62,694 nt of DNA from a virus (lineage: Duplodnaviria; Caudoviricetes): positions 1 to 62,694 of IMG/VR virus record IMGVR_UViG_3300034167_000773, one strand, 5' to 3'. The translations under genes and the position numbers were made by a program. Positions 2,027 to 48,922 of the stretch are shown piece by piece. Each line of letters starts with the position of its first letter. Position 1 is the stretch's first letter. Under the pieces are notes generated by a model. It saw only the letters and a list, made by a program, of their open reading frames with translations, searched no databases and was not told where the DNA came from.

Positions 2027-2100
2027 TGACTCTGGTAGGATTCAAACCTACAACTTTCACCTTAGAAGGGTGACACTCTATTCAATTGAGTTACAGAGTC
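2027..2100 (-). tRNA. tRNA-Arg (anticodon UCU), CCA not encoded
   Basis: GACTCTG-TA-ACTC AATTGAATA GAGT-G-TCACC CTTCTAA GGTGA-AAGTT-GTAGG TTTGAAT CCTAC-CAGAGTC-A folds as a full cloverleaf. Confidence 0.9.
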
Positions 2101-4498: not shown

Positions 4499-4792
4499 TT
4501 AAACTTTAGGTAATTCTGCTACTTTATCACAAGCAGCTAAAACCTTATTTAAATCTTTACAAAAGTACCCATACTCCTGTTTTAGTTCATCATTTAATGA
4601 TGAACAAAAGAATGGATCATATGAGTCTTCTACATAAACAATTAAGCCATAGTAGACAAACCTAAAATCCTCATCATCATGTACAGATGGAGTATTTTTC
4701 ACGATTATTAAACTATAACCATTAGGTAATGTTTTTGTATACTCAGTATTTCCACCATGTACATTTCTTTTTTTAAACTCTTCAATATTCAT
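4499..4792 (-). CDS. Hypothetical protein
   Basis: Start placed at ATG 4792 (MNIEEFKK) after an A-rich leader; the longer start overlaps the ribozyme. Confidence 0.7.
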   Translation of the reverse strand: MNIEEFKKRNVHGGNTEYTKTLPNGYSLIIVKNTPSVHDDEDFRFVYYGLIVYVEDSYDPFFCSSLNDELKQEYGYFCKDLNKVLAACDKVAELPKV

Positions 4793-5091: not shown

Positions 5092-5121
5092 AGGAATACA
5101 AGTATTGCTACCTGTATTCCT
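5092..5121 (-). terminator. Terminator-like hairpin abutting the twister P1
   Basis: AGGAATACAGGTA-GCAA-TACTTGTATTCCT followed by TTTT. Confidence 0.55.
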
Positions 5122-5142: not shown

Positions 5143-5208
5143 TTATTTTCTGTCATATGCAATAGCATCCTCAATGGATACTATTACACCATTGATAATG
5201 GCGCACAT
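5143..5208 (-). CDS. Possible 21-aa peptide (MCAIINGVIVSIEDAIAYDRK)
   Basis: ATG 2 nt after the lipoprotein stop; could equally be non-coding hairpin sequence. Confidence 0.3.
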   Translation of the reverse strand: MCAIINGVIVSIEDAIAYDRK

Positions 5209-5210
5209 AG

Positions 5211-5408
5211 TTACTTAACAATAAGATACTTGTTTCTATTTACATATACTGTATCTCCTAATCTATACATAGGATCTACGTTAATTAAATAGATAGCACT
5301 TGATGCTTTGTTATCTAAAGGACCAATAAGTCTTGCTCTGACTTTTTTATCATTTGAGCAAGAAGATAAGGCAGCTACTGCTGCAATAAGAATGAGAAGA
5401 TTTTTCAT
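5211..5408 (-). CDS. Small lipoprotein
   Basis: MKNLLILIAAVAALSSC lipobox followed by SNDKK. Confidence 0.8.
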   Translation of the reverse strand: MKNLLILIAAVAALSSCSNDKKVRARLIGPLDNKASSAIYLINVDPMYRLGDTVYVNRNKYLIVK

Positions 5409-5435
5409 TTGGTTTGTGAAATTTAAATTAAAACA

Positions 5436-5590
5436 TGTGTTTTACACCTAAAACTTTATACTTATCATAGTATTGTGGTAGTTATAGCAGTTTATTACTA
5501 TATACTAGTATTCCACAACCTATTTACTGAATGGATAAGAATTTACTAAAGAAACTGGTGCCCTCAACAACTTGGGAAGTTATTAAGTTT
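5436..5590 (-). ncRNA. Circularly permuted twister-like RNA lacking P4
   Basis: UCCCAAGU-U-GUU-GA-GGG-CACC ... GGUG-UAA-AAC-AC gives T1 CCC/GGG, P1 CACC/GGUG, UAA site, P2 AAC/GUU and T2 AC/GU; no P4 3' strand. Confidence 0.55.
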
Positions 5591-5706
5591 TTTGTGAATT
5601 TATTCTCAGAGTTAATAGCCATAGTAACCTAAACTTGTATGTGATAATACAGTTGATGATTACTTTGCTTCCAAAGAATAAATAAGAGAAAGGGGAATTT
5701 CACCCC

Positions 5707-6015
5707 TTAAGAATATCTATCTCCAGGTTTTCTACCTTTAGAGAAATGTTCTACAACATCTCTTTCAGTAGATTCCCTTTCAATAAAGTATTCTGTTGTT
5801 CTATCATCAACAGACTTGGATGGTTCTCTATAAGACCATTCAGTAAGAGTTCTATGATGAACAGTATTACTAAGACGTTCTCTATCTTTAATAAAAGTAA
5901 AGATGTCTGTACCTAACTCTTCTTTAACCATATCATTTAACTTGTGAAATAATTGGTTATAATCATTAAGAGTCTTTTGATTTCTAATGTTGTGTAATTC
6001 TTCTTGAATAGACAT
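5707..6015 (-). CDS. Hypothetical protein
   Basis: 102-aa ORF followed by the hairpin AAGGGG-TGAAATT-CCCCTT. Confidence 0.7.
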   Translation of the reverse strand: MSIQEELHNIRNQKTLNDYNQLFHKLNDMVKEELGTDIFTFIKDRERLSNTVHHRTLTEWSYREPSKSVDDRTTEYFIERESTERDVVEHFSKGRKPGDRYS

Positions 6016-8931: not shown

Positions 8932-10967
8932 GAAATAAAAATGGTATTTGGATTAATACTGAGCCTTTTAGAGAGGCCGGTAATAAGTTTATTACTACTG
9001 GTAGATATACTGATGCTCTTTTTGGGACCCTAGAGTTTGATAGATTTTGGGATCAAGAGTTTACTAGGTGTATAGAAGGGTATGAAGTATCAGGAGCTAA
9101 GATTACTGGTAAGCATTACTTCTATTTGAACTATTGTCTTATCAATAAGGTAAATTTAACTGATGATAACAGAGGTAAAAGAAAAGTATCTAAGGGATTT
9201 CTTCTTCCTGATTTTTGGGATGGGGACTTTGAGTACTTCTGGTTTCTAGAGATTGCAGAAAATGGTATAGACCCACTACTTATCCCAGGTTTGCACTTGA
9301 ATAACAAAGTGTTATGTACAGAAGGCGGTAAGAGTATGATAGTAGGTAAAGCAAGGAGAAGAGGTTTCTCTTATAAGAATGCTGCTACTATAGCTTGGGA
9401 ATATACCTTCATTAAAAAAAGCTTAACCCTAGTTGCTGCTTATGATAAGAAGTATCTATTCTCAGAAATTGGTATCTTTACTAAGGTTATGGATATGCTT
9501 AACCACTTGAATACCAATTGCCCAGCTTTTAAAAGAAGCAGGTTAGTTAATAAGATTGCTGATGGTAGAATTAAGAGTGGTTATATAGAATATACTGATG
9601 ATGGTACAGAATTAGCTAAAGGACATCAAAGTTCTATTACTTGTGTATCTTTTATGAATAACCCTGATGCTGCAAGGGGTGCTGATGCTAGTAAAATTAT
9701 TGTAGAAGAAGCAGGTACTTTTGTTAATTGGAATGAGAGTTACTATGCTATGGAACCTTCTATTAAAGCTGGTGATTATTATACTGGTATGATGATTATC
9801 TTTGGTACTGGTGGTGATATGGAAGCTGGTACTATTGACTTTGCTGAAATGTACTATAATCCAGACAATTATAACATGATGCCCTTTGAGAATGTATGGG
9901 ATGAGGATGGATTAAGAGAAAAATCTGCAGGTTTCTTCTTTCCTATGTTTCAAAACTATGAAGGGGCTTATGATAAGAGTGGTAACTCAGATATACCTAA
10001 GGCTAAAGAACTTCTTACCAAACTAAGGGAGAATAAGAAAGCTAAAGCTAAATCTCCTGATGAGTATTTAAGACATACTACTGAGTATGCTTGGTCACCA
10101 GCAGAAGCCTTTCAAATTATCTCTAATAATGTATTTCCTACAGAAGATTTAAGAAGGCAACTAGGATTATGTCAGACTAAAGATGAATATAAAGGTATTT
10201 GTGGTAAAATGGCTTATGATGAGAGAGGTAATCCAGAGTTTGTACCAGACTTAAATTTAAAACCACTTGAGTATAGAGATAAAACTTTAAATAAAAGTGG
10301 TTGTATACAGATTTGGGAAAAACCAACTCCAGGTACATCGTACAACTTATATACTGGAGGACTAGATCCATATGCTACTGATGAAGCTAATTACTCAGAC
10401 TCACTTGGCTCATTGTTTATCTTTAAAAGATATGCTATTGGTGAGGAAACTCATGATCTTCCAGTTGCTGAGTATACAGGTAGACCACAGAACTTTAAAG
10501 AATTCTATGACCAATGCATTCTCTTAATTGAGTACTATAACGCAAGCTGTTTATATGAAAATAACATCAACAATTTCAAAACTCACTGTGAGAATAAACA
10601 TAAATTACATTTATTATCCAGAACTCCAGGTATTGTCAAAGCTGCTTCTAACCAACACACAAACACCTATGGTATCAGAGTTGTCGGCAATTCATATTCA
10701 TCTGTCAAGAATGAACTTATCACTTATGTAAACAACTGGTTAAGAGAGGAGTATGAAGATGGTAAGAGTAATGTTTATAAGATTAAGTCTGTAGGACTAT
10801 TACAAGAACTTATAACTTACAATAGTAGAGGTAACTTTGATAGATTTATATCCTTCTCTCTAGCACTTATTAGAAGTATAGAGTTAACTAGAATACAACC
10901 TGCTTTTAAAGACTCGTATAAGAGGAATGGCAGAGATTTCTTTTCTTCCAAATTATTTAGTAACTAA
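8919..10967 (+). CDS. terL: Terminase large subunit
   Basis: Walker A-like KARRRGFSY, Walker B IIVEEAG, coupling motif FGTGG, nuclease GLDPY and GNFDR, all typical of crAss-like TerL. Confidence 0.95.
   Translation: MGAVRNKNGIWINTEPFREAGNKFITTGRYTDALFGTLEFDRFWDQEFTRCIEGYEVSGAKITGKHYFYLNYCLINKVNLTDDNRGKRKVSKGFLLPDFWDGDFEYFWFLEIAENGIDPLLIPGLHLNNKVLCTEGGKSMIVGKARRRGFSYKNAATIAWEYTFIKKSLTLVAAYDKKYLFSEIGIFTKVMDMLNHLNTNCPAFKRSRLVNKIADGRIKSGYIEYTDDGTELAKGHQSSITCVSFMNNPDAARGADASKIIVEEAGTFVNWNESYYAMEPSIKAGDYYTGMMIIFGTGGDMEAGTIDFAEMYYNPDNYNMMPFENVWDEDGLREKSAGFFFPMFQNYEGAYDKSGNSDIPKAKELLTKLRENKKAKAKSPDEYLRHTTEYAWSPAEAFQIISNNVFPTEDLRRQLGLCQTKDEYKGICGKMAYDERGNPEFVPDLNLKPLEYRDKTLNKSGCIQIWEKPTPGTSYNLYTGGLDPYATDEANYSDSLGSLFIFKRYAIGEETHDLPVAEYTGRPQNFKEFYDQCILLIEYYNASCLYENNINNFKTHCENKHKLHLLSRTPGIVKAASNQHTNTYGIRVVGNSYSSVKNELITYVNNWLREEYEDGKSNVYKIKSVGLLQELITYNSRGNFDRFISFSLALIRSIELTRIQPAFKDSYKRNGRDFFSSKLFSN
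10915..10921 (+). promoter_or_regulatory. CGTATAA putative late promoter (portal)
   Basis: One of 12 exact copies; 45 nt before the portal ATG. Confidence 0.6.
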
Positions 10968-19038: not shown

Positions 19039-19671
19039 ATGAATATTATAGAATGGCATCAAGCATTTAAGGTACAACTAGATACTCTTGATACTCAAGG
19101 GGCTCTACGTCTACAACCTGAGGTGGTTGATGTATTCTTTAATAAAGCTATTAATAAGATAATGATAGAACTTTATGATTCTTTTGAAGAATCTCAAGAA
19201 CTATCTGATGCATTATCTTCACAAACTATTATAACAAGTTGTACTGTAAACCCAACAACTGTACCTAATCAATGGAAAGTTTCTTTTCCATCTGATTATT
19301 ATCACCATTTGCAATCTAATGCAACTCTTAAGATTGGTACTGTAACTGGTTATGTTAGAACAGTTAAACAACTACTTGATAATGAGAGTAAGATTATAGA
19401 TAGTCCATTTGAGAGAGCAAATGATACAGAAATTCCTATCTTCTTTAAAGCTGGTGGAATTTATGCATATACTCCTCCTGGGTATACTTTAGATAGTTTT
19501 AATATAACTTATTTAAAGAATCCTATTATAGTCTCGTATAAACAAAATATAGACAGTGACATTGATGAGTATCTCCATGAGAGAATTATTAACCTAGCTG
19601 TTATATATGCACTTGAAACTTATGGTTCTGAAAGGACACCATCTAAAGTGCAAATTAAAGATGTCAATTAA
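19039..19671 (+). CDS. Tail ring / head-tail connector protein
   Basis: PEVVDVFFNKA, ITYLKNP, LHERIINLAV motifs; synteny with crAss001 ring proteins. Confidence 0.7.
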   Translation: MNIIEWHQAFKVQLDTLDTQGALRLQPEVVDVFFNKAINKIMIELYDSFEESQELSDALSSQTIITSCTVNPTTVPNQWKVSFPSDYYHHLQSNATLKIGTVTGYVRTVKQLLDNESKIIDSPFERANDTEIPIFFKAGGIYAYTPPGYTLDSFNITYLKNPIIVSYKQNIDSDIDEYLHERIINLAVIYALETYGSERTPSKVQIKDVN

Positions 19672-37000: not shown

Positions 37001-40000
37001 ATGGCAAAAAAAATAACACCTACTTTTAGCTCTGGAGGGTTTCCAGTAGTACCTCAATCTACAACTGGTATTGATGTTGGATTTGAAGGATCAAAGTATG
37101 AAAGACCTATAGCACCTGGAGAATCTGTTGAACAAGTACTTGCTGCAGAGCAAGGAATGATGGATGTTACTGGTAATATTCTTGGTAGATTTCTTGGTAG
37201 AGCAACATTATCTGTAGCAGAAACTGCAGGAATGATTGGATATGGAAGTATTGCTGCTATTAGAGATAGAAGTTTTTCTAGTTTATATGATAATGAATTA
37301 AGTAAACAATTTAAAAAAGCTGATGAGTTCTTAGTTAAGAATACTCCATTCTATGATACTGCTGAAGAAAAGAAAGCTAAATTCTTTTCCTCAGATATTT
37401 TTACAGTAATGGGTAGTGCAGGATTCTGGGGTAATGCCTTAGGTGAGGGTGCAGGTTTTGTAGCAGGTGCTGTTGCCGGAGGTTATGGAACAGGACTTTT
37501 ATTAAAGGGCTTAGGAGCTCTTGGTAGAGGTGCCTTAACTGTAACTAGAATGTCTAAAGCTGTAACTGCTGCTACAGAAGCAGAACAATTAGGAGCCTTA
37601 GCTGCTGAGGGGGTTAAGGATGTTAACTTTGCTAATAAAGTAAAAAATGTTCTTAGTAGTGCTAAGTTTAAAAATGCTGCTCAATTTCAAACTCAAAGAG
37701 CAGTTAGTAATATGTATGAAGCTGGTGTAGAAGCCAAGGGAATTAAGGAAGAATATATTGCTAACATGGAGAAAGACTTTAAGTTGCAATATGGAGAAGA
37801 TGCTGTTGCTGATGAAGCTACTAAACTTGATTGGGAAAAACAAGCTAACAAGTATGCCAATGTTGGTTTTGGAATAAACATGGCTTTACTTAATCTTGAT
37901 GGAATAGGATATAGTAGATATTTTAAAGGATATAAGGAAACTAGAAAAGCTATTGATGCTACTAGAGATGCTGCTACTGGAATGTATAAGCCTCTTACAG
38001 GTATTAGAAAAGGTATCTCTACAGTTAAGAATTATGGAGGTAATGCATTTGCAGAATCCTTTCAAGAAGCAGGTCAGTATGTTACTGAGAAGACTCTTAC
38101 AGATAGAGACTTACAACAATCTGGAAGAGGTATTACAGATTATGTAAGAGCTACTATAAAAGGTTTAGAAGAAACTTTTGGTAGTAAAGAAGGACAAGAA
38201 AGTATGGTTATTGGTGCTATGCTTGGTGGCCCATCTTCTGTTAGAGAAGGTATGGCCCAAGGTAAACTTAATCAAGTAGGTATAGACTTACTTAATAAGT
38301 ATATGGCTAAGGAATCTATTGCTCCTATTATTAAACATACTAATGATGCCGTTCAAAGTAATAAAGGAGATCTTAGTGAGAGGGTAGCTGAATCTTCTTC
38401 TAAGTATCTTTTTAGAAGTGCACAAGATGAGGCTTTCTATAACTATGTAAATAGTAGAATACAGTCAGGAAGATTTGGAGACATGATGGATGATCTTGAT
38501 GACTTTAAAAGAATGGATGAAGGTACCTTTAATGAACTTTTTGTCACTTCTTATGATAGAGTTAAGAAAGATCAAACAGTACAAGAACTCATCAACTCTG
38601 CTAAAAGAATTCAAGATATTACTGATAAGACAGATGCAGTTTATGGTAAGAATAAATTTAAGAGTGAGATTATTAAAACTGTAGCTGATGTATCTACTTA
38701 TGATAAAAGAATAAATGAAATACAAAGTAAATTAGCTTCTGAGAATAATCCTCTTGAGAGAGAACTTTTGATGAGTGATTTAGGATTCTTAGTTAAGGAT
38801 AGAGATGCCGCTAATGCTAAACTTAGATTAATGACTTCTCTTGCTTCTAATGAAGAAATTGCTCTTAATAAAGAAAAAAATGAGAAGCCTAAGAAAGAAA
38901 TAGAAAAAATTGATAAAGAAAAACCTCCTGTAGCTGCAACACCTACTCCAAGTACTGATATTGTTAAAGGTAATACTGTTGTAGTAGATGGTAAGAAAGT
39001 AATTATAGAAGGAATTAATGATGATGGTACTGTAAGAGGAGCTACTCCTGCAGGACCAATAACATTTGATCCTGATGAGATAGATGCTCCTATTCAAGGA
39101 TTTGAGAAAAGTGACCACTATGATGAAGAACCTCAAGAATTAACTCCTGAGAAAGCTACTCTTGGTAGAGATGCAGTAGATGCTCCTGCTGGAGAAAACT
39201 TTGGAGGTAGAGCTTTTGTATATGATCCTCTTGACCCTAACTCTGAATTTGGTCAATGGACTGATTTTCAACCTATCTTAAATAATGATGTATTAAATAA
39301 TAAATTAAATAATGGTAATGCTACAGAATTAGATAAAACTAATGGAGCTAAAGCTCAAGAAGTTGTTGATAAACTTATCAATGACAACATGAAGAAAATT
39401 AAAGACACTCATACTTTTGAAGTTAGAAATGAGAATGGTAGAAATAACTTATATGCCATTGATAGAAAAGATAATAAACCAACTCTTATAGGATTTTTTA
39501 AGAATGGTAACTTTCAAGTAGGTAACTCATCTAATACTAAATCTAAAAAGAAACATAATGGTTTAAATGAGTTTGTAGATTCATATTCTCAAACTGAGCA
39601 AGGTAAGAGAAAACAAATACCTGATAAAAATGGTAGAAATGTTTTCATGGATGTTATTAATGGATGGAGAAAACTTATTAATAGTAAAGTAGCTGATGTT
39701 ACTAATTATTTAAAGTTACGTTCAGAAATACTCAATACTGGTACTCCTACAACTCTTGCAGAGATTATGAATTCTCCTTATGCTGAGAGATGGAAAGTTA
39801 ATGGAGAATATGTTATTGTACATAATGATAATGGTAACTATATTCTTATAGATAATGTTAATCAAAAATCAAATATTGATTTAGCCAATGAATACTTAAA
39901 TAAACCAGATGCTGTCAGATCTCTTGGTACTCAATATGCAATTCTTGTTAAAAGACCTGATAGTGATAATTATCAGTTTATTGGATTAAAGGGTGGAGAT

Positions 40001-43000
40001 TTATCTGCTACTGAAAAACAATCTTATGTAGAACTTGTAAAAAAAGTTAATAATAATCCTGGTGAATATACTCAGGAAGAAGTTGATAAAATTATTAATG
40101 ACTTAAATAAAAATATATTCTTAGCTACTAATAAAGTAATTAAAATTGAGGGGCAAGAAGTTCCCATTCACATTAGATTTTATAGAACTAAGGGTAAAAA
40201 TCAAATTAAAATTATTACTTCTCCTAAGTTAGGATTAGATGGTAAACCAGTAGGAGGTATTAAGTTAACTCTTAAACAAGCATTTGGAACTTTTCCTGAT
40301 GTAGAATCTGCTATCATTAATCTTGGTAAAAAGAAAATTTATAAAGCTTCTGAGGAGGCACAAGATTTAGATTTCTTAAAAGATTATCTTGAGACTAAAG
40401 TTAGTCCTACTATTTGGAAAACATATTTTAGATTTGAGCATAGAGATTTCTTAGCTAATGAGGTTAATAATACTAATGAAAAATACTCTGCTGCAGAACA
40501 AGAATTTCCAGCTAATAGTGAGAATGTATATAATGTAGGAGATTCTGTTATTTGGAATGGTGCTCCACATACTATTGCTAAAATAGTTGCTGGAGGAGTT
40601 CCATTTTATACACTAGCTGATGCTAGTGGTAATATTGTTAAAACTTCTACAAAACAAGATAGATTATTTCCTGCCACTCAATTAACTCCTGCTAAAAAAG
40701 AAGCACCTACAGAAAGAATGAAAAATGTAGGAATGAGTAGACAACAAGCTGAGGATGATATAGAAAAACTTGGAGTTGACTTATATTATGCTAAATTATT
40801 AGGTAAATCAGTTGAAAAAAATAAACCTCTTGATAAAGGAAAACAATATCTTAGAATTATTGTAGATATGTCAAACCATGCAAGTGCTGCTGAAATAATA
40901 ACTGGCACTGGAGAAGTTTACAATTATACTCAAATGAGTGGTTATTCTGGTTCAGGAACATCAAATCAAATGGTAATTCAATTACCATCATTTTATGATA
41001 GTAAAGGAAAACTTTTTGAAGGTAGTCTTTCTACAGGTTATATATATGAAATACCTAATATAGATATTAATAATAAAGAACTTTTAGCTCAATTTTTATC
41101 ATCATCTAACTATATAAAAAATAAACCTATATCTGCTAAAGTAGGTTTTGTAAATAATAATGATGGTACTTCAACATTAAAATATTATGATTTAAATTTT
41201 AATGTAAAACAAAAAATTATAGAAACTCCAGCAGGAGCATATCCTGAAAAATTAATTAATGATTTTTTAAAAAAGGAATATGATGCAGAATTAGCTGCTT
41301 TAAAAGGAGTTAAACCTACTGCTCCTGTATCTGATTTTAATTCTTTACCGGATTTACAGAAACAAAATCTTATTGCTGCTAAAATTCTTAAAGCTCCTCC
41401 TACTGATATGTTAATGACATTAACTCCAGAGGAAAGAAAATATTATAATGAGTATAAAACTGTAATAGATAATATAATAGACATGTTATCTATTGGAGGT
41501 CTTTATCAACAAAGTGGTAAAAATAATGATTTAGATCCAGCACTTGGAGGAGTTGATATTGCTGATAATCTTCCTGCAGAAGGACCTATAGGTACATTTA
41601 AACCTGCTATTGAGGATGCTAACTTAGAAGAAATCTCTGATGAGGTTGCTAGAGAAATAGAAGCTTTTACCGGACTTAAGGTAGAGTTTTATAAAGAAGG
41701 TAATACTCAAAACTTTGGTGAGTTTAGAGATGGTATTATATACTTAAGTAGATTTGTTCCTAAAGGTACTCAGTGGCATGAAGCTTTCCATGGTATCTTC
41801 TCATTACTTCCAGAAGCTGAGCAAGATAGATTACTTAGAATTGCTGGTAATAAGTGGGGAGTAACTAATGAGGAGTTTATGGAACTCATTAAAATTTATG
41901 AAGATAGAGGTCATGCTAACTTCTTAAAAAGTGTAGGTAAGGATTGGATTGTAAAAACTATTCTTGAGGAAAAGATTGCAGATCATTTTCAAGAGTTTAT
42001 GGTAGAAGGTAAGAAGCCAGTAATTCTAGAAAGTTTCTTTACTAAAGCTAAAAGATTTGTAAATCTAATGACTGGTGTAGTAGAAGAACCTTCTTTCCAA
42101 TCATTCTTTGCTGATGCTACTAAAGGTAAATTTAAAAAGAATGTTCCTGTAGGTACTCAAGCTAGAATTGCTACTGCTAAATATAAAGTTATTCCTGGTA
42201 GTAAAACAGAAACAGAATCTAATAGATTGATTAAGGAACTTGTTAATTTGTATGCAGATAGACATAATCCTAAATTACTTGAGAACTTTCCTGAACTTAA
42301 AGATGCTGATAATACTCTACAAGGATTTGTAAGGTATTATATAAATTTACTTAGAAAATATTCTAATGAGGGAATTGTAAGACAAGCTACAGAATATAAA
42401 CAAATATTAGAAGATCCACTTGTTCCTGATGAAAGGAAAGAAAGTGTAAAAAGAGATTATGATGATTTTCTAAAATCTCTTCAAAAACCTGAAGACCCTA
42501 ATATTCCACCTACTTTTGTTAAAGAAGATGGATTAGTATTTCCTGCTTTATTTCACTCTAGTAATCTTAAAATGATTACTAAAGAAGTAATTAGGACTGG
42601 TAATTTTAAAGAAACTTATGAGGAAGTAGATCAAGAAAATGAGAAGGATATTATGCACAATGAAAGTGTGCAATCTAAAAATCCTCTTACAGAAACTTCT
42701 ACTAGAGATTTAAGAAATATTATCTCTAGTATGTATTACTTTGATATGGGTAAACCTACATTCTTAGATGAGAAAGGTGTTATTAATAATCTACTCTTTA
42801 ATCTAAGTAATGTTGAACCTGAGCAATATGAGGAAACTTTACAGAAACTTGCTAGAGAAGGAAATAATAGTATTGATAAGTCTGATTTCTCAAGATCTAT
42901 GCAAGAGGTTCTAAATATGTATAGAGGTAATGAAACTTTTAAAAACATTTTTAAAGGTGCATTTGATAAAAGGTTTGTAAAGTCTTTTCAAGTTGTAGAT

Positions 43001-46000
43001 ACTGTTAACACTAGAAATAGTGGTTCTAAAGTAATTACAGTTAATATGAAGAACCATCTTTATGCTCAAATGAATTTATGGAGAAATCAAGGTTTTAATA
43101 AAGAAATTAATTCTGAGGTAGTTAAAGATCTTAAAGATATTGGTAAAGGTCTTGGTATTAATATTGAACAAGATGTTTATACTGATCCTAATGCACAAGA
43201 AGTTCTTAATAAATTATATAAAATAATTAAGGGTGGTTTACAGAATAGAGATTTTAATAAAGTATTTTCTTCTGAGGCAAATAGAAATGTTCTTGAAAGT
43301 TTAGCTGCATTTAATATTGAAAGAAGATTAGATTTGGGAGAATTAAATTATAAAAATGCTGATGATAAAACTCAGTATTCTATTATTAATAACTCACACT
43401 TACTTGAGAAGATTACTAAAATTTATCTTCCTGAGTTGGATACAAGAAAACCTGAGAAAAGAGCTGCTGAAGGAAACTTACCTAACTTGACTTTTGGAAC
43501 ATTCTCAGGTTCACAATTTGGAGATAATTCTCACACTTACTCAGACCTTGATCCTGTTACTTATTTATATACAACTTTTAGTTTGTATAATAATTACTAT
43601 AAGAAAGGAGATGTTGATAAAGAATTTACACCTTATTTCTTTATTCAACAGTGGGAATCTAAGAGTACTAACTTTGTATTTCAAGGATATAATCATGCTG
43701 CAGATCCTATAGAAAATATTCTTAAATACTTAAATGAGGAAGTAGATAGACAAGCTATTAGAATTAATGAAACATTAGAATCTCTTAAGAAAGATGAAGA
43801 TATTAAATTAATTGATGGATATCATATTCTTAAAGATCCTAATAATAAATTATCTCCAAGAGAATATACTCTCTCACTTGTTGAGAGATTTATGAAAGAT
43901 GATATTACAAGAGACCAACTTCCAAGAGGTTTTCAGTATACTAATCTTCCATATGCTAATGAAAAGATTATCTCACAAAATCCAGTAACTTTAGAAGATT
44001 TAGAAAAAATGCTTTCTAAACAAGCTGAGAATATGGATAAGTATTTCAGAGAGTTTAACATCAATAAGATGAGTTTCTTAAAGGAAACTACTAATGATAA
44101 TAACTTAACTGAGGAGCAAGCTAATAAGTATATGAGAAACTTTCTTCTTAATCAGTATATGAATAGAAGTAGAGTTCTTGCTCAAATTACTCCTAATCTT
44201 GCAGAATTTAAAGGGTATGTAGATATTACTAAGAGGGGTGCTGGTGTACTAGCATCTGGTCCTAATCATGGAGAAGGAAACTTTAAGTTTGGTGTTATTA
44301 AAGATATAGATATTGAGGGGGCTAACTCTACTGATGCTGCAGGATATGAGAGTATATCTGAGAGGATAAATAGACTTCTTAGAAGAGGAGTAATCTCTAA
44401 TACTGATATGTCTACAGGTGGAGTAAGTGATAAGAAGTATGAGAATTATTTGCTTCTTAAAGCTCACTTAGAAGATGATAGAGATTATATTGATCTTCAT
44501 GATGATGATGATGCTCTTCTTAAAATTGAGAAGACTGTGGGTTATGGAGAAGAGTATTATATTAAGACTGCTGTAGCTCCTATAACAAGATATATGAGCT
44601 CACAGTTTGCAAATAAAGGAGATAAAATAACTGTTAATGGTGTAGAGTATACTGCTGTAAAAGATGTAGTTAATGAGAAATACTATCTACCTCTACCTTC
44701 CTCAGTAGATAGCTGGAAAATGCTTAATGAGATGCAGCAAGAAAATGGCCCACAAGCCATCTTTGCAGAATCTGCAATTAAGAAAAATGTTAATAGTAAG
44801 GTAGATGTACAAACAGAAAGTTTTGCTGGTAAGACTTTAGACTTTAGATATAAAGATTATCGCTTACAACAAGAAAACCCATCTGGTAAAGAAAAGATTA
44901 AAGATGGTACTCAGTTACTACAACTTATTGATGCATACTTTTCTAAAGATTTTGGTGGTGATGTTTCTAAGCAAATGGATGCTCTTGTTTCTGAACTTAA
45001 AAGTTATGGCTTTGAGTTCTTTGGTAGAGAGTTAGTTGCTAACATTAATGGAGAAACTTATGATCCTTTTATGGAATATGTGCAAGCAGCTATGGAAGGT
45101 TCTGCACTTAGTGATAGGATTATGGAATTCTTTGAGAAAGATCCTGTAACAGGAACTATGAAAATCTCTAGTAACATGCCTATGATTAGGAATAAGTTTG
45201 AGCAATATGTTATGTCTTACTATAACAATAATATTGCATCTCATAAAGTTCCTGGTAATAAGTGTACTCTCCTAACATCCTTGACTAAAGGAGTTATAAC
45301 TTTTGGAGATAAAACAATTAGTACTTATGAGTATAACAACTTATCTAAAGAAGATAAAAACAAATGTTCTACTAGAAGACTTTCATGGGCTACAGAATCT
45401 AAACCTTATGCTGAGGTTATTGTATCTGAGGAATACATTAATCAGATGGGATTTACCATCTCTGAGTGGCATGATTTAAAGAAAAATGATCCAACCTTAT
45501 TTGAGAAAGTATCTACAGCAGTAGGTTACAGGATTCCTACACAAGCTCAACACTCTATGATACCAATTAAGATTGTTGATATTTTACCTGCTAGTTATGG
45601 TAGTACAATTATAGCACCTGCAGAAATTACTAAAATCTCTGGAGCTGACTATGACGTGGATAGTTTATATATCCATAAACCAAGTGTTTATCATACTGTA
45701 GAAAATAAAGTTAAGAAGTTTAAAATGTATGAAGATGATGTATACTCCTATGAAAAATCTATTAACAGTAATAAGATAGTTAAGGAGATAGCATCTAAAT
45801 TAAATAGTGAAGAGAAAGAATCTATTCAACATCAGATGATGATTCTTAAAAGAAAGAAATATTCTATTAGTAAAAAATTAAATGATCTTAGAAGTATTTC
45901 TGATACTATTAAAGAATCTTCTCCTGCTGAAAGAGATAAGTATTATGCTGAAAAAGATTCCTTACTTACTGAGATTAAAGCTGTTAATAATGATTTAGCT

Positions 46001-48922
46001 TTTCAGAAAGAGGAAATGAATGATGTTAATAGAAGATCTAGTACTGAAGCTATTAAACTTATTAGAGATAAAGATGATCCTCAAAGACAGATTTTTCTTC
46101 CAGGTTATGTACAAGGATTAAAGAATCCTGATGGAACTAAATCTGTAAATGCTATTATTCCAGAAAGTAATTTTAATAAATTACTAGAACTAAGATTAAA
46201 ACTCCTTACTTCTAAAGAAGGTGTAGACTTAATTAATACTCCTGCTAAAGATTTTATGAAGGAGATTTACAGTGGAAATGAGAAAGAAAATAAAACTGCT
46301 TATTTCTTAGACGCAGGTTATCCTAATCCTAACAAGGAAGCTAAAGATTATGTAGTTTACTCTGGACAAGATACCATGCTTAATGAGTATAAGAAAATCT
46401 CTACAGGTAGTAAAGCTATTGGAGGTGCAGCTAATATAAATAAGGTAGCAGCATTTCTACAAAAGAATGGTGTTGTTTTAGATAGTACTTTAGCTGCTAA
46501 ACTAAAATCATTATACTCTGGATTAGAGTTTGATAGTGCCTCAGAGTTTGAGAGTGATTTTGATTTTATAATGCAGGATGGTAAAATTGGTTTTGTAACT
46601 AAGACTGAGAATGCTCTTAAGTTTAATACCCTCTCTAACATGGTATCCATTACTGTGGATAATGCTAAAGATCAAACCTTGGTTCTCTTTAATATTACAG
46701 ATAAGAATATCTCTGAGATATCTACAATGGCTATGTTAGGCATGGGTATAAATAGAATCTCAGCAATTCTACAAACTCCTGCAGCTAGAAAGATATCTTC
46801 TCTTTTAAGCATTCCAGATAAAGGTGTTTATGAGTATCAAGAGTTTAGAGATAATCCTAAAGCTATTAAGAAATACATTGAAGAAGACTTACAGAAAAAA
46901 GGTCTTGAGATTGTAAGTCTAACAGATGCTGATATTGTAGATAGTATTTCTACATGGGATGAGAATAAAAGAATTGAGGAATTATTATATGCTAAAGATA
47001 TTAGTAATATAAGTGATAAAGATAAACATAGACTTAATGTACAATATACTATTGCTAATCTTTATCTTGAGATTAGTAATATCACTAAAGATGCTTACCA
47101 AGTAAATACTTTACTTAACTTTAATAAAACTATAGGTAAAGAAGGTTTTGAGATTAGTAAATTAAGTACAGCATATAATAATATTAGTAAAGATGGTTTC
47201 TCATTTGCTCCAAGTAATATTACTAGTAATGGATTTATAAATACTGTAAATGATATTTCCGGTAAACTTGCTACTAGAGTAGGTAATAAAATTATTGCTT
47301 ACAATAATAATACAAATTCTTTAACTACTTCTATTGTTAGAAGTACTGATAAAGAAGGAGATGATTATCTTTCTAAAAGATTTCAAGCATCTCTTAATAA
47401 ATCTTTTATAGATTTCTTAGCTATTAATATGTTTTTTAATAAACATAAAGAAAAGAATGTACTTGGAGGAATTGATCTTTGGGATGAAAATATCTTAAAT
47501 GGTACAGCTATTACTGAAGCTTATGATAAAGTTAAGAATAAATTAGATTCTTATACTATAGGTAAGATGTTTGAAATTCAAAACCCTACTATTAAATATC
47601 CATTTAAAAGAGTAGGTATAGATACCTTTACTAACTTATCTCCTGATGAAGAACAGAATATTGTAGATAGCTTTGATAGAATGATATCATCTAGTGATTC
47701 TGAAATTAAGAATTTTGCTTATCAAGTTTTAGCACATGTAGCTGTACATGATAATTATAGATACTTAAAAGGTTCAGTAGTTAGTAAGATAAGAGCTAGA
47801 TACTTGGGTACTTATAACCAAATGTATACTGAGTATCTTGAGCCTATTATTAAAGAAATTGAAGATTCAGTTTTAACTGAGCAAGAAAAAAGAGATTTAC
47901 AATATCTTAAAGAAAGAGGTATTAGTGTTAAAGAACCTAAGACAGTAAGACAAAAACTTGTATATCATACTGGTTATAATAACTATACTACCTTAATTGG
48001 AAACTTTGCTAAGTATTTCTTTAGTGATAATAGAAATGCAAGATTTGTTAATAATCTTAAAGGAGTTAAGTTTTTATATAAACCTCAAGAAGGAGAAACT
48101 TTAGAAATTACTCCTGTTAGTAAAATTATTAATAATGAAGATGTTTATATTATTGAAGCAGATTCTTCTATCAATGCTTATGATATAATATCTCCACTTA
48201 TGTTTCAAAGCAAAGGAATATATATTAAGGAATCTTATGAGAATGATGTTGACTCTTTCTTAAAAGAAGGTGTTAAAGTTAGTAGAATAATTTATAAAAA
48301 ACTTGATGTTATTAATGGAGGTTATCTTCCTAGTGTTATGGCACAACAATATCCTTATAATCAATATAAAGAAATTGTTGATAAAGCTATAAAAGCACTT
48401 AAAGAAGATACTCGCCCTGGAACTGGAGCTAACTATGGAGCTATAGATAGTGAGGAATCAGAAAATGTAAAAGGTGCATTTGATTATGATCCTGTAAGAA
48501 TGGATGATTTTCCAGATGTTGATTTAGATTCTGGTGATGAGGAAGGTAAAGAAAATAATGCTATCTCTAATCCTCCTGTACAACCTAATGTAGTTCCGGT
48601 AATATCTGCAGAAGAAACTTTTAATAAACCAGATGAAACTGCTGATGCTTTACTTAAAGCTCAGCAGGATGAACTTGAAAGAAGAAAAGAAGAATTTTTA
48701 AAATCATTAAATTTAAGTAGTTTTAATCCATCTGATTTACCTAAGATGAAAGTTAGACCTCAAACAAATACCTTAGCTAATGAGGTAATTGATGAAATTT
48801 CTAATAACTTTGAGCAGTATAAAATTGCTTTAGAATCTGTAGGTATCAATTCCGTAGAAGAACTTATGGAGTTGTCTGATGAAAGAAAAGCAACATTAAT
48901 TCAAGATATTTGTAAAGGATAA
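37001..48922 (+). CDS. Virion-packaged two-barrel RNA polymerase with zincin-like domain
   Basis: 3973 aa; GYRIPTQ..HS followed by catalytic GADYDVDSL (about 45641-45667); HExxH (WHEAFH, about 41777); N-terminal Gly/Ala hydrophobic helices; matches the phi14:2 gp66 family architecture. Confidence 0.92.
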   Translation: MAKKITPTFSSGGFPVVPQSTTGIDVGFEGSKYERPIAPGESVEQVLAAEQGMMDVTGNILGRFLGRATLSVAETAGMIGYGSIAAIRDRSFSSLYDNELSKQFKKADEFLVKNTPFYDTAEEKKAKFFSSDIFTVMGSAGFWGNALGEGAGFVAGAVAGGYGTGLLLKGLGALGRGALTVTRMSKAVTAATEAEQLGALAAEGVKDVNFANKVKNVLSSAKFKNAAQFQTQRAVSNMYEAGVEAKGIKEEYIANMEKDFKLQYGEDAVADEATKLDWEKQANKYANVGFGINMALLNLDGIGYSRYFKGYKETRKAIDATRDAATGMYKPLTGIRKGISTVKNYGGNAFAESFQEAGQYVTEKTLTDRDLQQSGRGITDYVRATIKGLEETFGSKEGQESMVIGAMLGGPSSVREGMAQGKLNQVGIDLLNKYMAKESIAPIIKHTNDAVQSNKGDLSERVAESSSKYLFRSAQDEAFYNYVNSRIQSGRFGDMMDDLDDFKRMDEGTFNELFVTSYDRVKKDQTVQELINSAKRIQDITDKTDAVYGKNKFKSEIIKTVADVSTYDKRINEIQSKLASENNPLERELLMSDLGFLVKDRDAANAKLRLMTSLASNEEIALNKEKNEKPKKEIEKIDKEKPPVAATPTPSTDIVKGNTVVVDGKKVIIEGINDDGTVRGATPAGPITFDPDEIDAPIQGFEKSDHYDEEPQELTPEKATLGRDAVDAPAGENFGGRAFVYDPLDPNSEFGQWTDFQPILNNDVLNNKLNNGNATELDKTNGAKAQEVVDKLINDNMKKIKDTHTFEVRNENGRNNLYAIDRKDNKPTLIGFFKNGNFQVGNSSNTKSKKKHNGLNEFVDSYSQTEQGKRKQIPDKNGRNVFMDVINGWRKLINSKVADVTNYLKLRSEILNTGTPTTLAEIMNSPYAERWKVNGEYVIVHNDNGNYILIDNVNQKSNIDLANEYLNKPDAVRSLGTQYAILVKRPDSDNYQFIGLKGGDLSATEKQSYVELVKKVNNNPGEYTQEEVDKIINDLNKNIFLATNKVIKIEGQEVPIHIRFYRTKGKNQIKIITSPKLGLDGKPVGGIKLTLKQAFGTFPDVESAIINLGKKKIYKASEEAQDLDFLKDYLETKVSPTIWKTYFRFEHRDFLANEVNNTNEKYSAAEQEFPANSENVYNVGDSVIWNGAPHTIAKIVAGGVPFYTLADASGNIVKTSTKQDRLFPATQLTPAKKEAPTERMKNVGMSRQQAEDDIEKLGVDLYYAKLLGKSVEKNKPLDKGKQYLRIIVDMSNHASAAEIITGTGEVYNYTQMSGYSGSGTSNQMVIQLPSFYDSKGKLFEGSLSTGYIYEIPNIDINNKELLAQFLSSSNYIKNKPISAKVGFVNNNDGTSTLKYYDLNFNVKQKIIETPAGAYPEKLINDFLKKEYDAELAALKGVKPTAPVSDFNSLPDLQKQNLIAAKILKAPPTDMLMTLTPEERKYYNEYKTVIDNIIDMLSIGGLYQQSGKNNDLDPALGGVDIADNLPAEGPIGTFKPAIEDANLEEISDEVAREIEAFTGLKVEFYKEGNTQNFGEFRDGIIYLSRFVPKGTQWHEAFHGIFSLLPEAEQDRLLRIAGNKWGVTNEEFMELIKIYEDRGHANFLKSVGKDWIVKTILEEKIADHFQEFMVEGKKPVILESFFTKAKRFVNLMTGVVEEPSFQSFFADATKGKFKKNVPVGTQARIATAKYKVIPGSKTETESNRLIKELVNLYADRHNPKLLENFPELKDADNTLQGFVRYYINLLRKYSNEGIVRQATEYKQILEDPLVPDERKESVKRDYDDFLKSLQKPEDPNIPPTFVKEDGLVFPALFHSSNLKMITKEVIRTGNFKETYEEVDQENEKDIMHNESVQSKNPLTETSTRDLRNIISSMYYFDMGKPTFLDEKGVINNLLFNLSNVEPEQYEETLQKLAREGNNSIDKSDFSRSMQEVLNMYRGNETFKNIFKGAFDKRFVKSFQVVDTVNTRNSGSKVITVNMKNHLYAQMNLWRNQGFNKEINSEVVKDLKDIGKGLGINIEQDVYTDPNAQEVLNKLYKIIKGGLQNRDFNKVFSSEANRNVLESLAAFNIERRLDLGELNYKNADDKTQYSIINNSHLLEKITKIYLPELDTRKPEKRAAEGNLPNLTFGTFSGSQFGDNSHTYSDLDPVTYLYTTFSLYNNYYKKGDVDKEFTPYFFIQQWESKSTNFVFQGYNHAADPIENILKYLNEEVDRQAIRINETLESLKKDEDIKLIDGYHILKDPNNKLSPREYTLSLVERFMKDDITRDQLPRGFQYTNLPYANEKIISQNPVTLEDLEKMLSKQAENMDKYFREFNINKMSFLKETTNDNNLTEEQANKYMRNFLLNQYMNRSRVLAQITPNLAEFKGYVDITKRGAGVLASGPNHGEGNFKFGVIKDIDIEGANSTDAAGYESISERINRLLRRGVISNTDMSTGGVSDKKYENYLLLKAHLEDDRDYIDLHDDDDALLKIEKTVGYGEEYYIKTAVAPITRYMSSQFANKGDKITVNGVEYTAVKDVVNEKYYLPLPSSVDSWKMLNEMQQENGPQAIFAESAIKKNVNSKVDVQTESFAGKTLDFRYKDYRLQQENPSGKEKIKDGTQLLQLIDAYFSKDFGGDVSKQMDALVSELKSYGFEFFGRELVANINGETYDPFMEYVQAAMEGSALSDRIMEFFEKDPVTGTMKISSNMPMIRNKFEQYVMSYYNNNIASHKVPGNKCTLLTSLTKGVITFGDKTISTYEYNNLSKEDKNKCSTRRLSWATESKPYAEVIVSEEYINQMGFTISEWHDLKKNDPTLFEKVSTAVGYRIPTQAQHSMIPIKIVDILPASYGSTIIAPAEITKISGADYDVDSLYIHKPSVYHTVENKVKKFKMYEDDVYSYEKSINSNKIVKEIASKLNSEEKESIQHQMMILKRKKYSISKKLNDLRSISDTIKESSPAERDKYYAEKDSLLTEIKAVNNDLAFQKEEMNDVNRRSSTEAIKLIRDKDDPQRQIFLPGYVQGLKNPDGTKSVNAIIPESNFNKLLELRLKLLTSKEGVDLINTPAKDFMKEIYSGNEKENKTAYFLDAGYPNPNKEAKDYVVYSGQDTMLNEYKKISTGSKAIGGAANINKVAAFLQKNGVVLDSTLAAKLKSLYSGLEFDSASEFESDFDFIMQDGKIGFVTKTENALKFNTLSNMVSITVDNAKDQTLVLFNITDKNISEISTMAMLGMGINRISAILQTPAARKISSLLSIPDKGVYEYQEFRDNPKAIKKYIEEDLQKKGLEIVSLTDADIVDSISTWDENKRIEELLYAKDISNISDKDKHRLNVQYTIANLYLEISNITKDAYQVNTLLNFNKTIGKEGFEISKLSTAYNNISKDGFSFAPSNITSNGFINTVNDISGKLATRVGNKIIAYNNNTNSLTTSIVRSTDKEGDDYLSKRFQASLNKSFIDFLAINMFFNKHKEKNVLGGIDLWDENILNGTAITEAYDKVKNKLDSYTIGKMFEIQNPTIKYPFKRVGIDTFTNLSPDEEQNIVDSFDRMISSSDSEIKNFAYQVLAHVAVHDNYRYLKGSVVSKIRARYLGTYNQMYTEYLEPIIKEIEDSVLTEQEKRDLQYLKERGISVKEPKTVRQKLVYHTGYNNYTTLIGNFAKYFFSDNRNARFVNNLKGVKFLYKPQEGETLEITPVSKIINNEDVYIIEADSSINAYDIISPLMFQSKGIYIKESYENDVDSFLKEGVKVSRIIYKKLDVINGGYLPSVMAQQYPYNQYKEIVDKAIKALKEDTRPGTGANYGAIDSEESENVKGAFDYDPVRMDDFPDVDLDSGDEEGKENNAISNPPVQPNVVPVISAEETFNKPDETADALLKAQQDELERRKEEFLKSLNLSSFNPSDLPKMKVRPQTNTLANEVIDEISNNFEQYKIALESVGINSVEELMELSDERKATLIQDICKG

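Follow-up and report, generated by a model that had tools for sequence, protein, structure and literature searches.

A minus-strand RNA in a crAss-like phage sequence has the strand order of a type P3 twister ribozyme and lacks stem P4, and its resemblance to twister makes it a candidate self-cleaving RNA, predicted to be cut between U5444 and A5443; we put the probability of this reading at roughly 55%. The window, meaning the whole stretch of 62,694 nucleotides that was analysed, contains a single copy, which is intergenic and spans positions 5593-5437 of the minus strand. The element is conserved, its helices T1, P2, P1 and P1b pair across relatives, none of which has a P4, and it lies on the strand of its neighbouring genes in ribozyme-rich surroundings. 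The initial annotation had proposed a minimal twister variant or a new related motif, and the covariation of T1, P2, P1 and P1b upholds that core architecture, P3-type in order and without P4.

The record from which the window comes is 62.7 kb long and about 33% complete (CheckV). Terminase, portal and major head protein are encoded on the plus strand of the window, and an ORF of 3973 aa (37001-48922, plus strand) lies 3' of these structural genes. Giant virion proteins are typical of crAss-like phages. The terminase is less than 60% identical to all 159 GenBank phage records that it matches. The best matches, at 34.6%, are to Flavobacterium phages, and by record name the 159 also include Bacteroides and Cellulophaga phages and CrAssphage. 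Because the terminase is this far from every one of these records, CrAssphage among them, the source of the window would be a distant crAss-like phage.

The gap that holds the RNA measures 298 nt and separates two small co-directional ORFs of the minus strand, 5707-6015 and 5211-5408. The core pattern of the RNA occurs once in the window against 0.01 occurrences expected by chance, and a covariance model built for the family likewise finds one copy in the record. The downstream ORF (65 aa) starts with an ATG at 5408, 35 nt beyond the predicted cut, and has no PHROG match. A PHROG search with eight neighbouring ORFs left seven without a match and assigned one to a family of unknown function. 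Terminator-like hairpins occur in this small-ORF arm at 5092-5121 and 5690-5708 (both minus strand), and four terminator-like sites fall within 1.2 kb where 0.3 would be expected. The hairpin at 5690-5708 directly follows the upstream ORF and stands about 100 nt upstream of the RNA, which makes it uncertain that the RNA is transcribed together with the upstream gene. The same leftward arm carries a tRNA gene (2027-2100, minus strand; Rfam 68.2 bits).

Read 5' to 3' on the minus strand, the element opens with an A-tract of six A followed by CU (5593-5586). The initial annotation had located the element correctly, except that the 5' start belongs three A's further out, at 5593. Next comes a linker, U AAUAAC followed by UU (5585-5577), the final U of which directly precedes T1. 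The 5' strand of T1, CCC (5576-5574), pairs with GGG (5563-5561), and all three pairs covary. It is followed by AAG and one variable nucleotide (5573-5570), which is U in the window and A in most relatives, then by the 3' strand of P2, UGUU (5569-5566), and by GA (5565-5564). Beyond GGG lie the P1 strand CACC (5560-5557) and AGUUU (5556-5552), the 5' side of a conserved U-rich internal loop. A variable hairpin, P1b (5551-5454, base CUUUA/UAAAG), closes P1 and leads into UUUUA (5453-5449), the 3' side of the loop. The second P1 strand, GGUG (5448-5445), adjoins the junction UAA (5444-5442), and the 5' strand of P2, AACA (5441-5438), is followed by a conserved C5437, where conservation ends, 5-6 nt beyond the predicted cut.

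The core letters that the initial annotation had listed are thus all in place on the minus strand and in P3-type order: U, CCC, AAG and U at 5577-5570, GA and GGG at 5565-5561, CACC and GGUG at 5560-5557 and 5448-5445, UAA at 5444-5442, and AAC (5441-5439) opposite GUU (5568-5566). Its estimate of about 110 nt closing P1 compares with 108 nt enclosed (5556-5449). The P2 helix that it drew as AAC/GUU exists and is one pair longer, 4 bp formed by AACA (5441-5438) with UGUU (5569-5566).

Stems P1, P2 and P4 are essential in twister ribozymes, which also contain two pseudoknots, T1 and T2, according to a review (PMC5408937). The review further describes a U-A cleavage junction adjoining P1, a P2 of four pairs extended by a sheared A-G pair beside T1, a three-pair T1 supplemented by an A-A pair, a conserved U-A pair at the base of L4, and a T2 formed by a conserved GC in L2, and it states that activity survives deletion of P1 (PMC5408937). 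The phage RNA shares with twister type P3 the order of an L4-like strand, the 3' strand of P2, GA, the 3' strand of T1, the two P1 strands, U-A-A and the 5' strand of P2. It also shares the U-A junction by P1, a 4-bp P2, GA between P2 and T1, a 3-bp T1, and the U before and AA after the T1 strand. Every listed feature of the stack of P1, T1 and P2 is therefore present, whereas nothing of P4, T2 or L2 is. Presumably the likeness to canonical twister loops extends to individual letters. By analogy, GA would occupy the site of the sheared A-G pair, of the A-A pair and of the general-base G of twister, a role that we infer from the review.

Unlike twister, the phage RNA is without P4, the 2-bp T2, the GC of L2 and P3; its P1 is near-invariant and closed by a long variable hairpin, and it has an additional conserved A-tract, linker and U-rich internal loop, which possibly form a further helix, P0. 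The initial annotation had argued that P4 cannot form, and this holds: a single nucleotide (5570) separates AAG from the P2 strand, which leaves no room for P4. The spacing is one nucleotide in every member of the family, and none has a P4. Its 2-bp T2 (AC/GU), in contrast, does not survive comparison, as the second pair is paired in only 17 of 41 sequences of alignment A2 and that base belongs to P2 throughout the family. At most one invariant G-C pair is left as a remnant of T2 (G5571 and C5437, GC in 41/41 of A2). The invariant G of AAG and the C after P2 could pair across a one-base bulge, a matter on which their invariance decides nothing.

By analogy with the canonical fold, the strand that in twister leaves T2 and passes through P4 back to P2 would here be joined directly. 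Since T2 stacks on the end of P2 in twister, such a join would close a position that is already helical. Two substitutes for the missing parts were considered and rejected. A miniature P4 formed by the linker (C5579 with G5571 and so on) has an invariant first pair, and its next two pairs are unpaired in 22/41 and 26/41 sequences. A pairing of the linker with the 3' tail, as a P3, was discarded because the tail is not conserved in a comparison by eye.

Database models do not recognise the element. The Rfam twister models (-P1, -P3 and -P5) gave no match in the window at the gathering score and none at E values up to 10 on 5200-5800 or on 5430-5605 (176 nt), and none of the RAGATH families of Rfam 15 matched the element in the window or in either interval. 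A canonical twister-P3 search of five phage records that carry the element returned no matches, nor did it in the control genomes, so that it carries no weight here. Small ribozymes missed by standard models are not without precedent: non-circularly permuted hammerhead ribozymes occur in unexpected rearrangements, according to a study that also looked for additional permutations of twister and reports no promising candidates (Eckert et al., NAR 2023, PMC10085705). Those hammerheads are rearrangements of blocks, whereas the phage RNA would be a truncated twister, in which P4 and T2 are lost and the ordinary P3-type order is kept. Twister-sister, according to the review, has a vague similarity to twister in sequence and secondary structure, shows no evidence of a pseudoknot and is cut on the opposite strand (PMC5408937), whereas the T1 pseudoknot is the best-supported feature of the phage RNA.

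The element belongs to a family. When the 2.3 kb round the site were compared with GenBank, 13 crAss-like records matched, only over 45-52 nt (window positions of about 5544-5599) and at 88-91.5% identity; all 13 matches are unannotated. Four inspected records belong to Suoliviridae (three subfamilies) and Steigviridae, and in them the match lies between genes of the same strand. A query with a 60-nt block retrieved 17 phage records, all from uncultured phages and each at one place, and five phage records, three of them complete, each contain exactly one copy of the RNA. At about 90% identity, the RNA blocks appear far better conserved than the hallmark proteins of the phages. One 16-kb viral contig (L133) carries two minus-strand copies, at 4635-4758 and 1396-1578, about 3 kb apart.

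A minus-strand alignment of five sequences shows two conserved blocks that flank a variable middle. Block A begins at the A-tract and extends over the CCC-AAG segment and GA-GGG-CACC as far as AGUUUCUU; block B begins with AAGUUUUA, continues over GGUG-UAA and four further bases, and ends in a C. A degenerate pattern of block A matched at least 116 stretches in IMG/VR, and a longer version of it at least 120 stretches in metagenomes. In a collection of prokaryote genomes, 52 stretches were listed for the block A pattern, 15 of them with the signature of the family and the remainder chance matches. These 15 (L251, L253, L254, L258, L266, L267, L270, L271, L273, L284, L286, L290, L295, L297 and L300) lie mostly on short MAG contigs of unrelated taxa and are probably mis-binned or carried-over phage DNA; an archaeal MAG and a low-coverage 1-kb contig from an isolate assembly are among them. 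Overall, look-alikes amount to more than 300 stretches across viral, metagenome and MAG DNA among the matches listed.

Pairing was tallied in the listed viral and genome loci with a regular expression that fixed AAG, R-A, the P1 strand and the upstream run of A. Among the matches listed there are 174 distinct elements, of which 158 carry block B. T1 (CCC/GGG) is fully paired in 152 of these 158 listed elements, in nine paired letter combinations. Where the search left the first T1 pair free, 104 unique elements among the matches listed had C-G (72) or U-A (32) and none was discordant. The 120 metagenome stretches among the matches listed have C-G in 66, U-A in 51, U-G in two and C-A in one. 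Chance genome matches of the same pattern, taken as a control, divide about equally between C/A (11), T/G (10), C/G (9) and T/A (8).

The other two T1 positions were approached by excluding the window's letter. With the middle G excluded, 42 stretches among the matches listed included 37 family members, recognised by eye from their 5' signature; 31 of the 37 are compensated (CAC/GUG, UUC/GAA, UGC/GCA, UGC/GCG or CUC/GAG) and six are mismatched. Exclusion of G at the third position left 14 stretches among the matches listed, with seven family members, two of them compensated (UCU/AGA). Three of the five uncompensated members are without a detectable block B and one has a broken P2, for which reason they look like decaying copies. 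When the listed viral, genome and metagenome loci are pooled, 222 distinct elements fall into 163 groups by their variable hairpin. Ten groups that share a hairpin contain both CCC/GGG and UCC/GGA, and one of them also the U-G intermediate; the double change has therefore arisen, or been exchanged, many times.

P2 is as consistently paired, in 155/158 elements of the viral and genome set and 104/107 of the metagenome set among the matches listed. Its forms are CAUU/AAUG, UGUU/AACA, UAUU/AAUA, CGUU/AACG, UCUU/AAGA and UGCU/AGCA, together with wobble forms. In alignment A4 the two pairs on the side of the inner loop covary as CG 28, UA 26 and UG 3, and as AU 28, GC 25 and GU 1. P1 (CACC/GGUG) is paired in 158/158 among the matches listed; it is near-invariant and its covariation thin, with rare compensated forms in the second copy of L133 (CACU/AGUG) and in L160 (CGCC/GGCG). 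In relatives, CACC and GGUG are between 25 and 203 nt apart, and the basal 6 bp of P1b covary with up to six pair types per position.

The invariance of many core letters is partly built in, as the search patterns fixed them; retrieval through one block alone is less biased for the other. In members retrieved through block B alone the A-tract with its CU is near-invariant, and AAG is invariant except in L161. Conversely, UUUUA is at least 90% conserved in 68 unique sequences retrieved through block A, and the UAA junction is also at least 90% conserved in sequences retrieved through block A only. U, AA and then C after P2 are found in 153 of 158 elements among the matches listed. The linker AAUAAC is mostly conserved, with different letters in the L019 type, L164, L231 and L232, and the U before T1 is constant while the base before it varies (TT, AT, CT). 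Variation is so scarce in P1, the junction, the A-tract and the U-rich loop that pairing there is mostly beyond the reach of covariation.

The full model, counted as T1, P2, one G-C pair, P1 and six P1b pairs, was set against shuffled alignments. In the MAFFT alignment A2 (41 sequences), 93.2% of cells are paired compared with 83.5% in shuffles. The model-fitted alignments give 97.8% against 87.3% (A3, 100 sequences) and 97.6% against 82.2% (A4, 65 sequences). A3 and A4 were fitted to a model with T1, P1 and P1b and without P2, and so lean towards the three fitted helices; A2 is unfitted. Both sides have changed in 12 of 18 pairs of A4, which none of 500 shuffles matched, and when the partner columns are slid by one to three positions only 25-65% of cells are paired. 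RNAalifold, applied to A2, returned P2 and P1 as the consensus unprompted. Across the homologues T1, P2, P1 and the P1 hairpin thus covary, and the one helix of the initial annotation set against them, an alternative hairpin, does not.

This alternative hairpin, CUUAAUAAC/GUUGUUGAG, would compete with the fold of T1 and P2 and had been taken to suggest a switch that gates activity. The hairpin itself is credible, since it belongs to the minimum-free-energy fold of the window RNA (z -2.9 and -3.5) and a 6-bp version is possible in most relatives, with 81.8% of cells paired. Comparison gives the switch no backing: shuffles average 82.1% and 362 of 500 reach the observed value, RNAalifold does not choose the hairpin, and its three extra pairs are limited to the type found in the window. 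Single-base deletions and mismatches interrupt it in the L005 type and in L035/L086, an insertion of about 34 nt separates its arms in about ten members, and in L164, with an unrelated 5' segment and an intact core, it cannot form at all. Regulation by this hairpin is accordingly improbable.

Still less probable, to the point of being nearly negligible, is a signal that acts in the DNA, such as a promoter or a recombination or packaging site. Identical elements do occur between unrelated flanks (seven 5' and eight 3' flanks for ten elements), and part of block B resembles what we take to be the -7 box of Bacteroidota. The compensatory changes, however, span 60-200 nt, the G-U pairs of the helices are compatible only with the gene-sense strand, the orientation of the element matches the flanking genes in nearly all cases, and the putative -7 box often has A instead of its first T. 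On these four points the reading of block B as a promoter was rejected.

The conserved A-tract may supply what P4 and T2 no longer can. The extra stem AAAACU/AGUUUU of the initial annotation can form, as a helix P0 between the A-tract with its CU (5593-5586) and the AGUUU (5556-5552) just 3' of CACC, and the sequences favour it weakly. Its covariation is slight, at 93.0% paired against 89.0% in shuffles, with seven cells changed on both sides; these come from the type of L138, L172 and L083, in which both sides differ in a matching way. P0, the UUUUA strand, P1 and the linker might together form a platform that presents the T1 strand and does the job of P4 in twister. ENE-type triple helices clamp an A-tract with a U-rich internal loop. 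The phage RNA similarly has facing U-rich strands (AGUUU and UUUUA) between two stems and an A-tract in cis, so that a U-A-U triplex of this kind is conceivable, although Watson-Crick pairing is supported with one side only, and weakly.

Variants with the insertion of about 34 nt, which lies between the linker and the T1 strand, are L137, L148, L152, L163, L173, L175, L178, L188, L192 and L199. The insertion can fold into two hairpins, the first with a GNRA cap and the second small and abutting T1. By analogy, the second hairpin could stack on T1 like the P4 of twister; the copies hardly differ from one another and show no covariation. Both hairpins sit 5' of the loop and not as a closing stem.

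The mechanism that we propose treats the RNA as a self-contained, single-copy module transcribed with the neighbouring small genes and folded into an H-type pseudoknot that would reproduce the active-site half of twister. T1 (5576-5574 with 5563-5561) would enclose a loop, bases 5569-5566 of which pair with 5441-5438 to form P2, while CACC beside the loop pairs with GGUG to form P1, capped by the variable hairpin. This layout would dock the 3' strand GGUG-UAA-AACA-C like a substrate across the GA-GGG strand. Catalysis in twister involves a guanine and the junction adenine (PMC5408937). By analogy, self-cleavage would be expected between U5444 and A5443, with G5565 and A5443 serving in acid-base catalysis. 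Almost all of the ribozyme would stay with the upstream RNA, and the downstream mRNA would begin with a 35-nt leader bearing a 5'-OH. P0, with the A-tract placed in the U-rich internal loop beside P1, may hold the T1 strand in place of P4 and T2.

Processing of polycistronic transcripts would be the most economical function, one already proposed for twister and hammerhead ribozymes of bacteria (PMC6765202). When contig ends were used as a proxy for RNA ends, one of the 107 metagenome loci among the matches listed ended within 30 nt of the predicted site, and there was no pile-up. A bolder version, for which we would offer slightly less than even odds, describes a natural minimal twister: P1, T1 and P2 alone would build the active site in an H-type pseudoknot with a core of about 40 nt, and the A-tract in the U-rich loop would replace P4 and T2. 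This near letter-perfect single-copy module, carried by crAss-like phages of several habitats, would cut early transcripts at cassette boundaries beside Hatchet ribozymes.

The main competitor to self-cleavage, which we consider unlikely yet serious, is a non-catalytic RNA of the RAGATH kind. The pseudoknot would then be selected for another role, as a binding site for a protein or RNA, a processing signal for host RNase or a stability element, and its likeness to twister would be convergent or a relic. Several RNAs from ribozyme-rich neighbourhoods failed to cleave in experiments (PMC6765202). P4 and T2, absent from the phage RNA, are treated as essential or key in PMC5408937, where the L4-P4/L1-T1 architecture is called the key to the active structure. 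The absence of an Rfam twister match points the same way, and a sequence-specific partner is suggested by how unusually invariant the A-tract, the linker, P1 and the U-rich loop are. A second RNA type, moreover, combines the A-tract, CACC, hairpin base and U-rich loop with another core. In L139 and L161, two otherwise intact copies, AA replaces GA and hence A the presumed general-base G; L161 lies outside the 174-element search.

On the other side, the conserved unpaired letters of the phage RNA lie at the sites of the catalytic and tertiary-contact nucleotides of twister, and the G is retained in 173/174 among the matches listed. The dinucleotide GA is found in the same 173 of 174 distinct elements, in a search that allowed G or A at its first position. 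Conservation also stops after a short arm 3' of the UAA junction, as it would for a substrate arm. These features argue for the P4-less self-cleaver.

If the RNA does cleave, the twister active site needs neither P4 nor T2, and the minimal catalytic core would have to be redefined around what may be the smallest natural form of twister, which would also offer a highly compact starting point for ribozyme engineering. In that case crAss-like phages, which published abstracts describe as the most abundant human gut viruses, would process the transcripts of small genes with arrays of self-cleaving RNAs. Even without cleavage, the element represents a widespread, uncatalogued RNA family with strong covariation. 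In the literature covered, which consisted mostly of freely available articles without their supplements, no small self-cleaving ribozyme in crAss-like phages and no P4-less twister was found. Neither twister nor crAss appears in a paper about the theta ribozymes of gut phages, and a review of Crassvirales refers to ribozymes only where it deals with introns.

Other structured RNAs accompany the element. Hatchet ribozymes or RAGATH RNAs lie on its strand in 15 of 32 scanned loci (1-15 kb each), the RAGATH families being RAGATH-6, -7, -9, -12, -14 and -34. RAGATH RNAs are structured RNAs found near twister- and hammerhead-associated genes. The phage RNA resembles such RAGATH and Hatchet arrays in its neighbourhoods, its strand and its modular nature; it differs in matching no RAGATH model and, unlike most RAGATH RNAs, in having a recognisable ribozyme core. 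Same-strand arrays in L003, L035, L041, L051, L059 and others comprise the element, RAGATH-6, RAGATH-7, one or two Hatchet ribozymes and a tRNA, and RAGATH-14 is a close neighbour of the element in L052 and L046 (no more than about 80 nt away) and stands about 230 nt from it in L034. In cr114_1 the element stands two genes into a leftward small-ORF arm past the divergent point, and is followed by RAGATH-7 and Hatchet. Phage-borne tmRNA genes are found in the same arms as the element (L064, 7403-7948, plus strand; cr114_1, 19180-19622).

In nearly all of 111 elements the neighbouring ORFs, counted from 50 aa upwards and with an ATG start, share the strand of the element. The median gap is 192 nt between the end of the upstream ORF and the element (n = 100) and 134 nt between the predicted cut and the start of the downstream ORF (n = 96), with 41% of the downstream ORFs starting less than 100 nt away. 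Ten elements of one hairpin type have seven distinct 5' flanks and eight distinct 3' flanks. With the same hairpin between unrelated flanks, the element behaves as a cassette boundary, and the module marks sites at which phage genomes have been joined into mosaics by recombination or mobility.

The second RNA type is found at L079 (6059-6217, plus strand) and L192 (10525-10660, plus strand), and also in L160, L173, L194 and L301-L308. It shares the A-tract, CACC with AGUUUC, the hairpin base and the UUUUAG strand with the main element, and its 5' core is unrelated. An Rfam scan of the L079 locus did not match it. The native 3' end of this type is without GGUG, hybrids with a main-type block B exist, and in six loci this second type precedes a main-type copy by 288 nt. 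In L160 a divergent copy (9318-9457, minus strand) directly follows an element of the L079 type; its P1 is the compensated CGCC/GGCG, and its T1 and P2 are imperfect.
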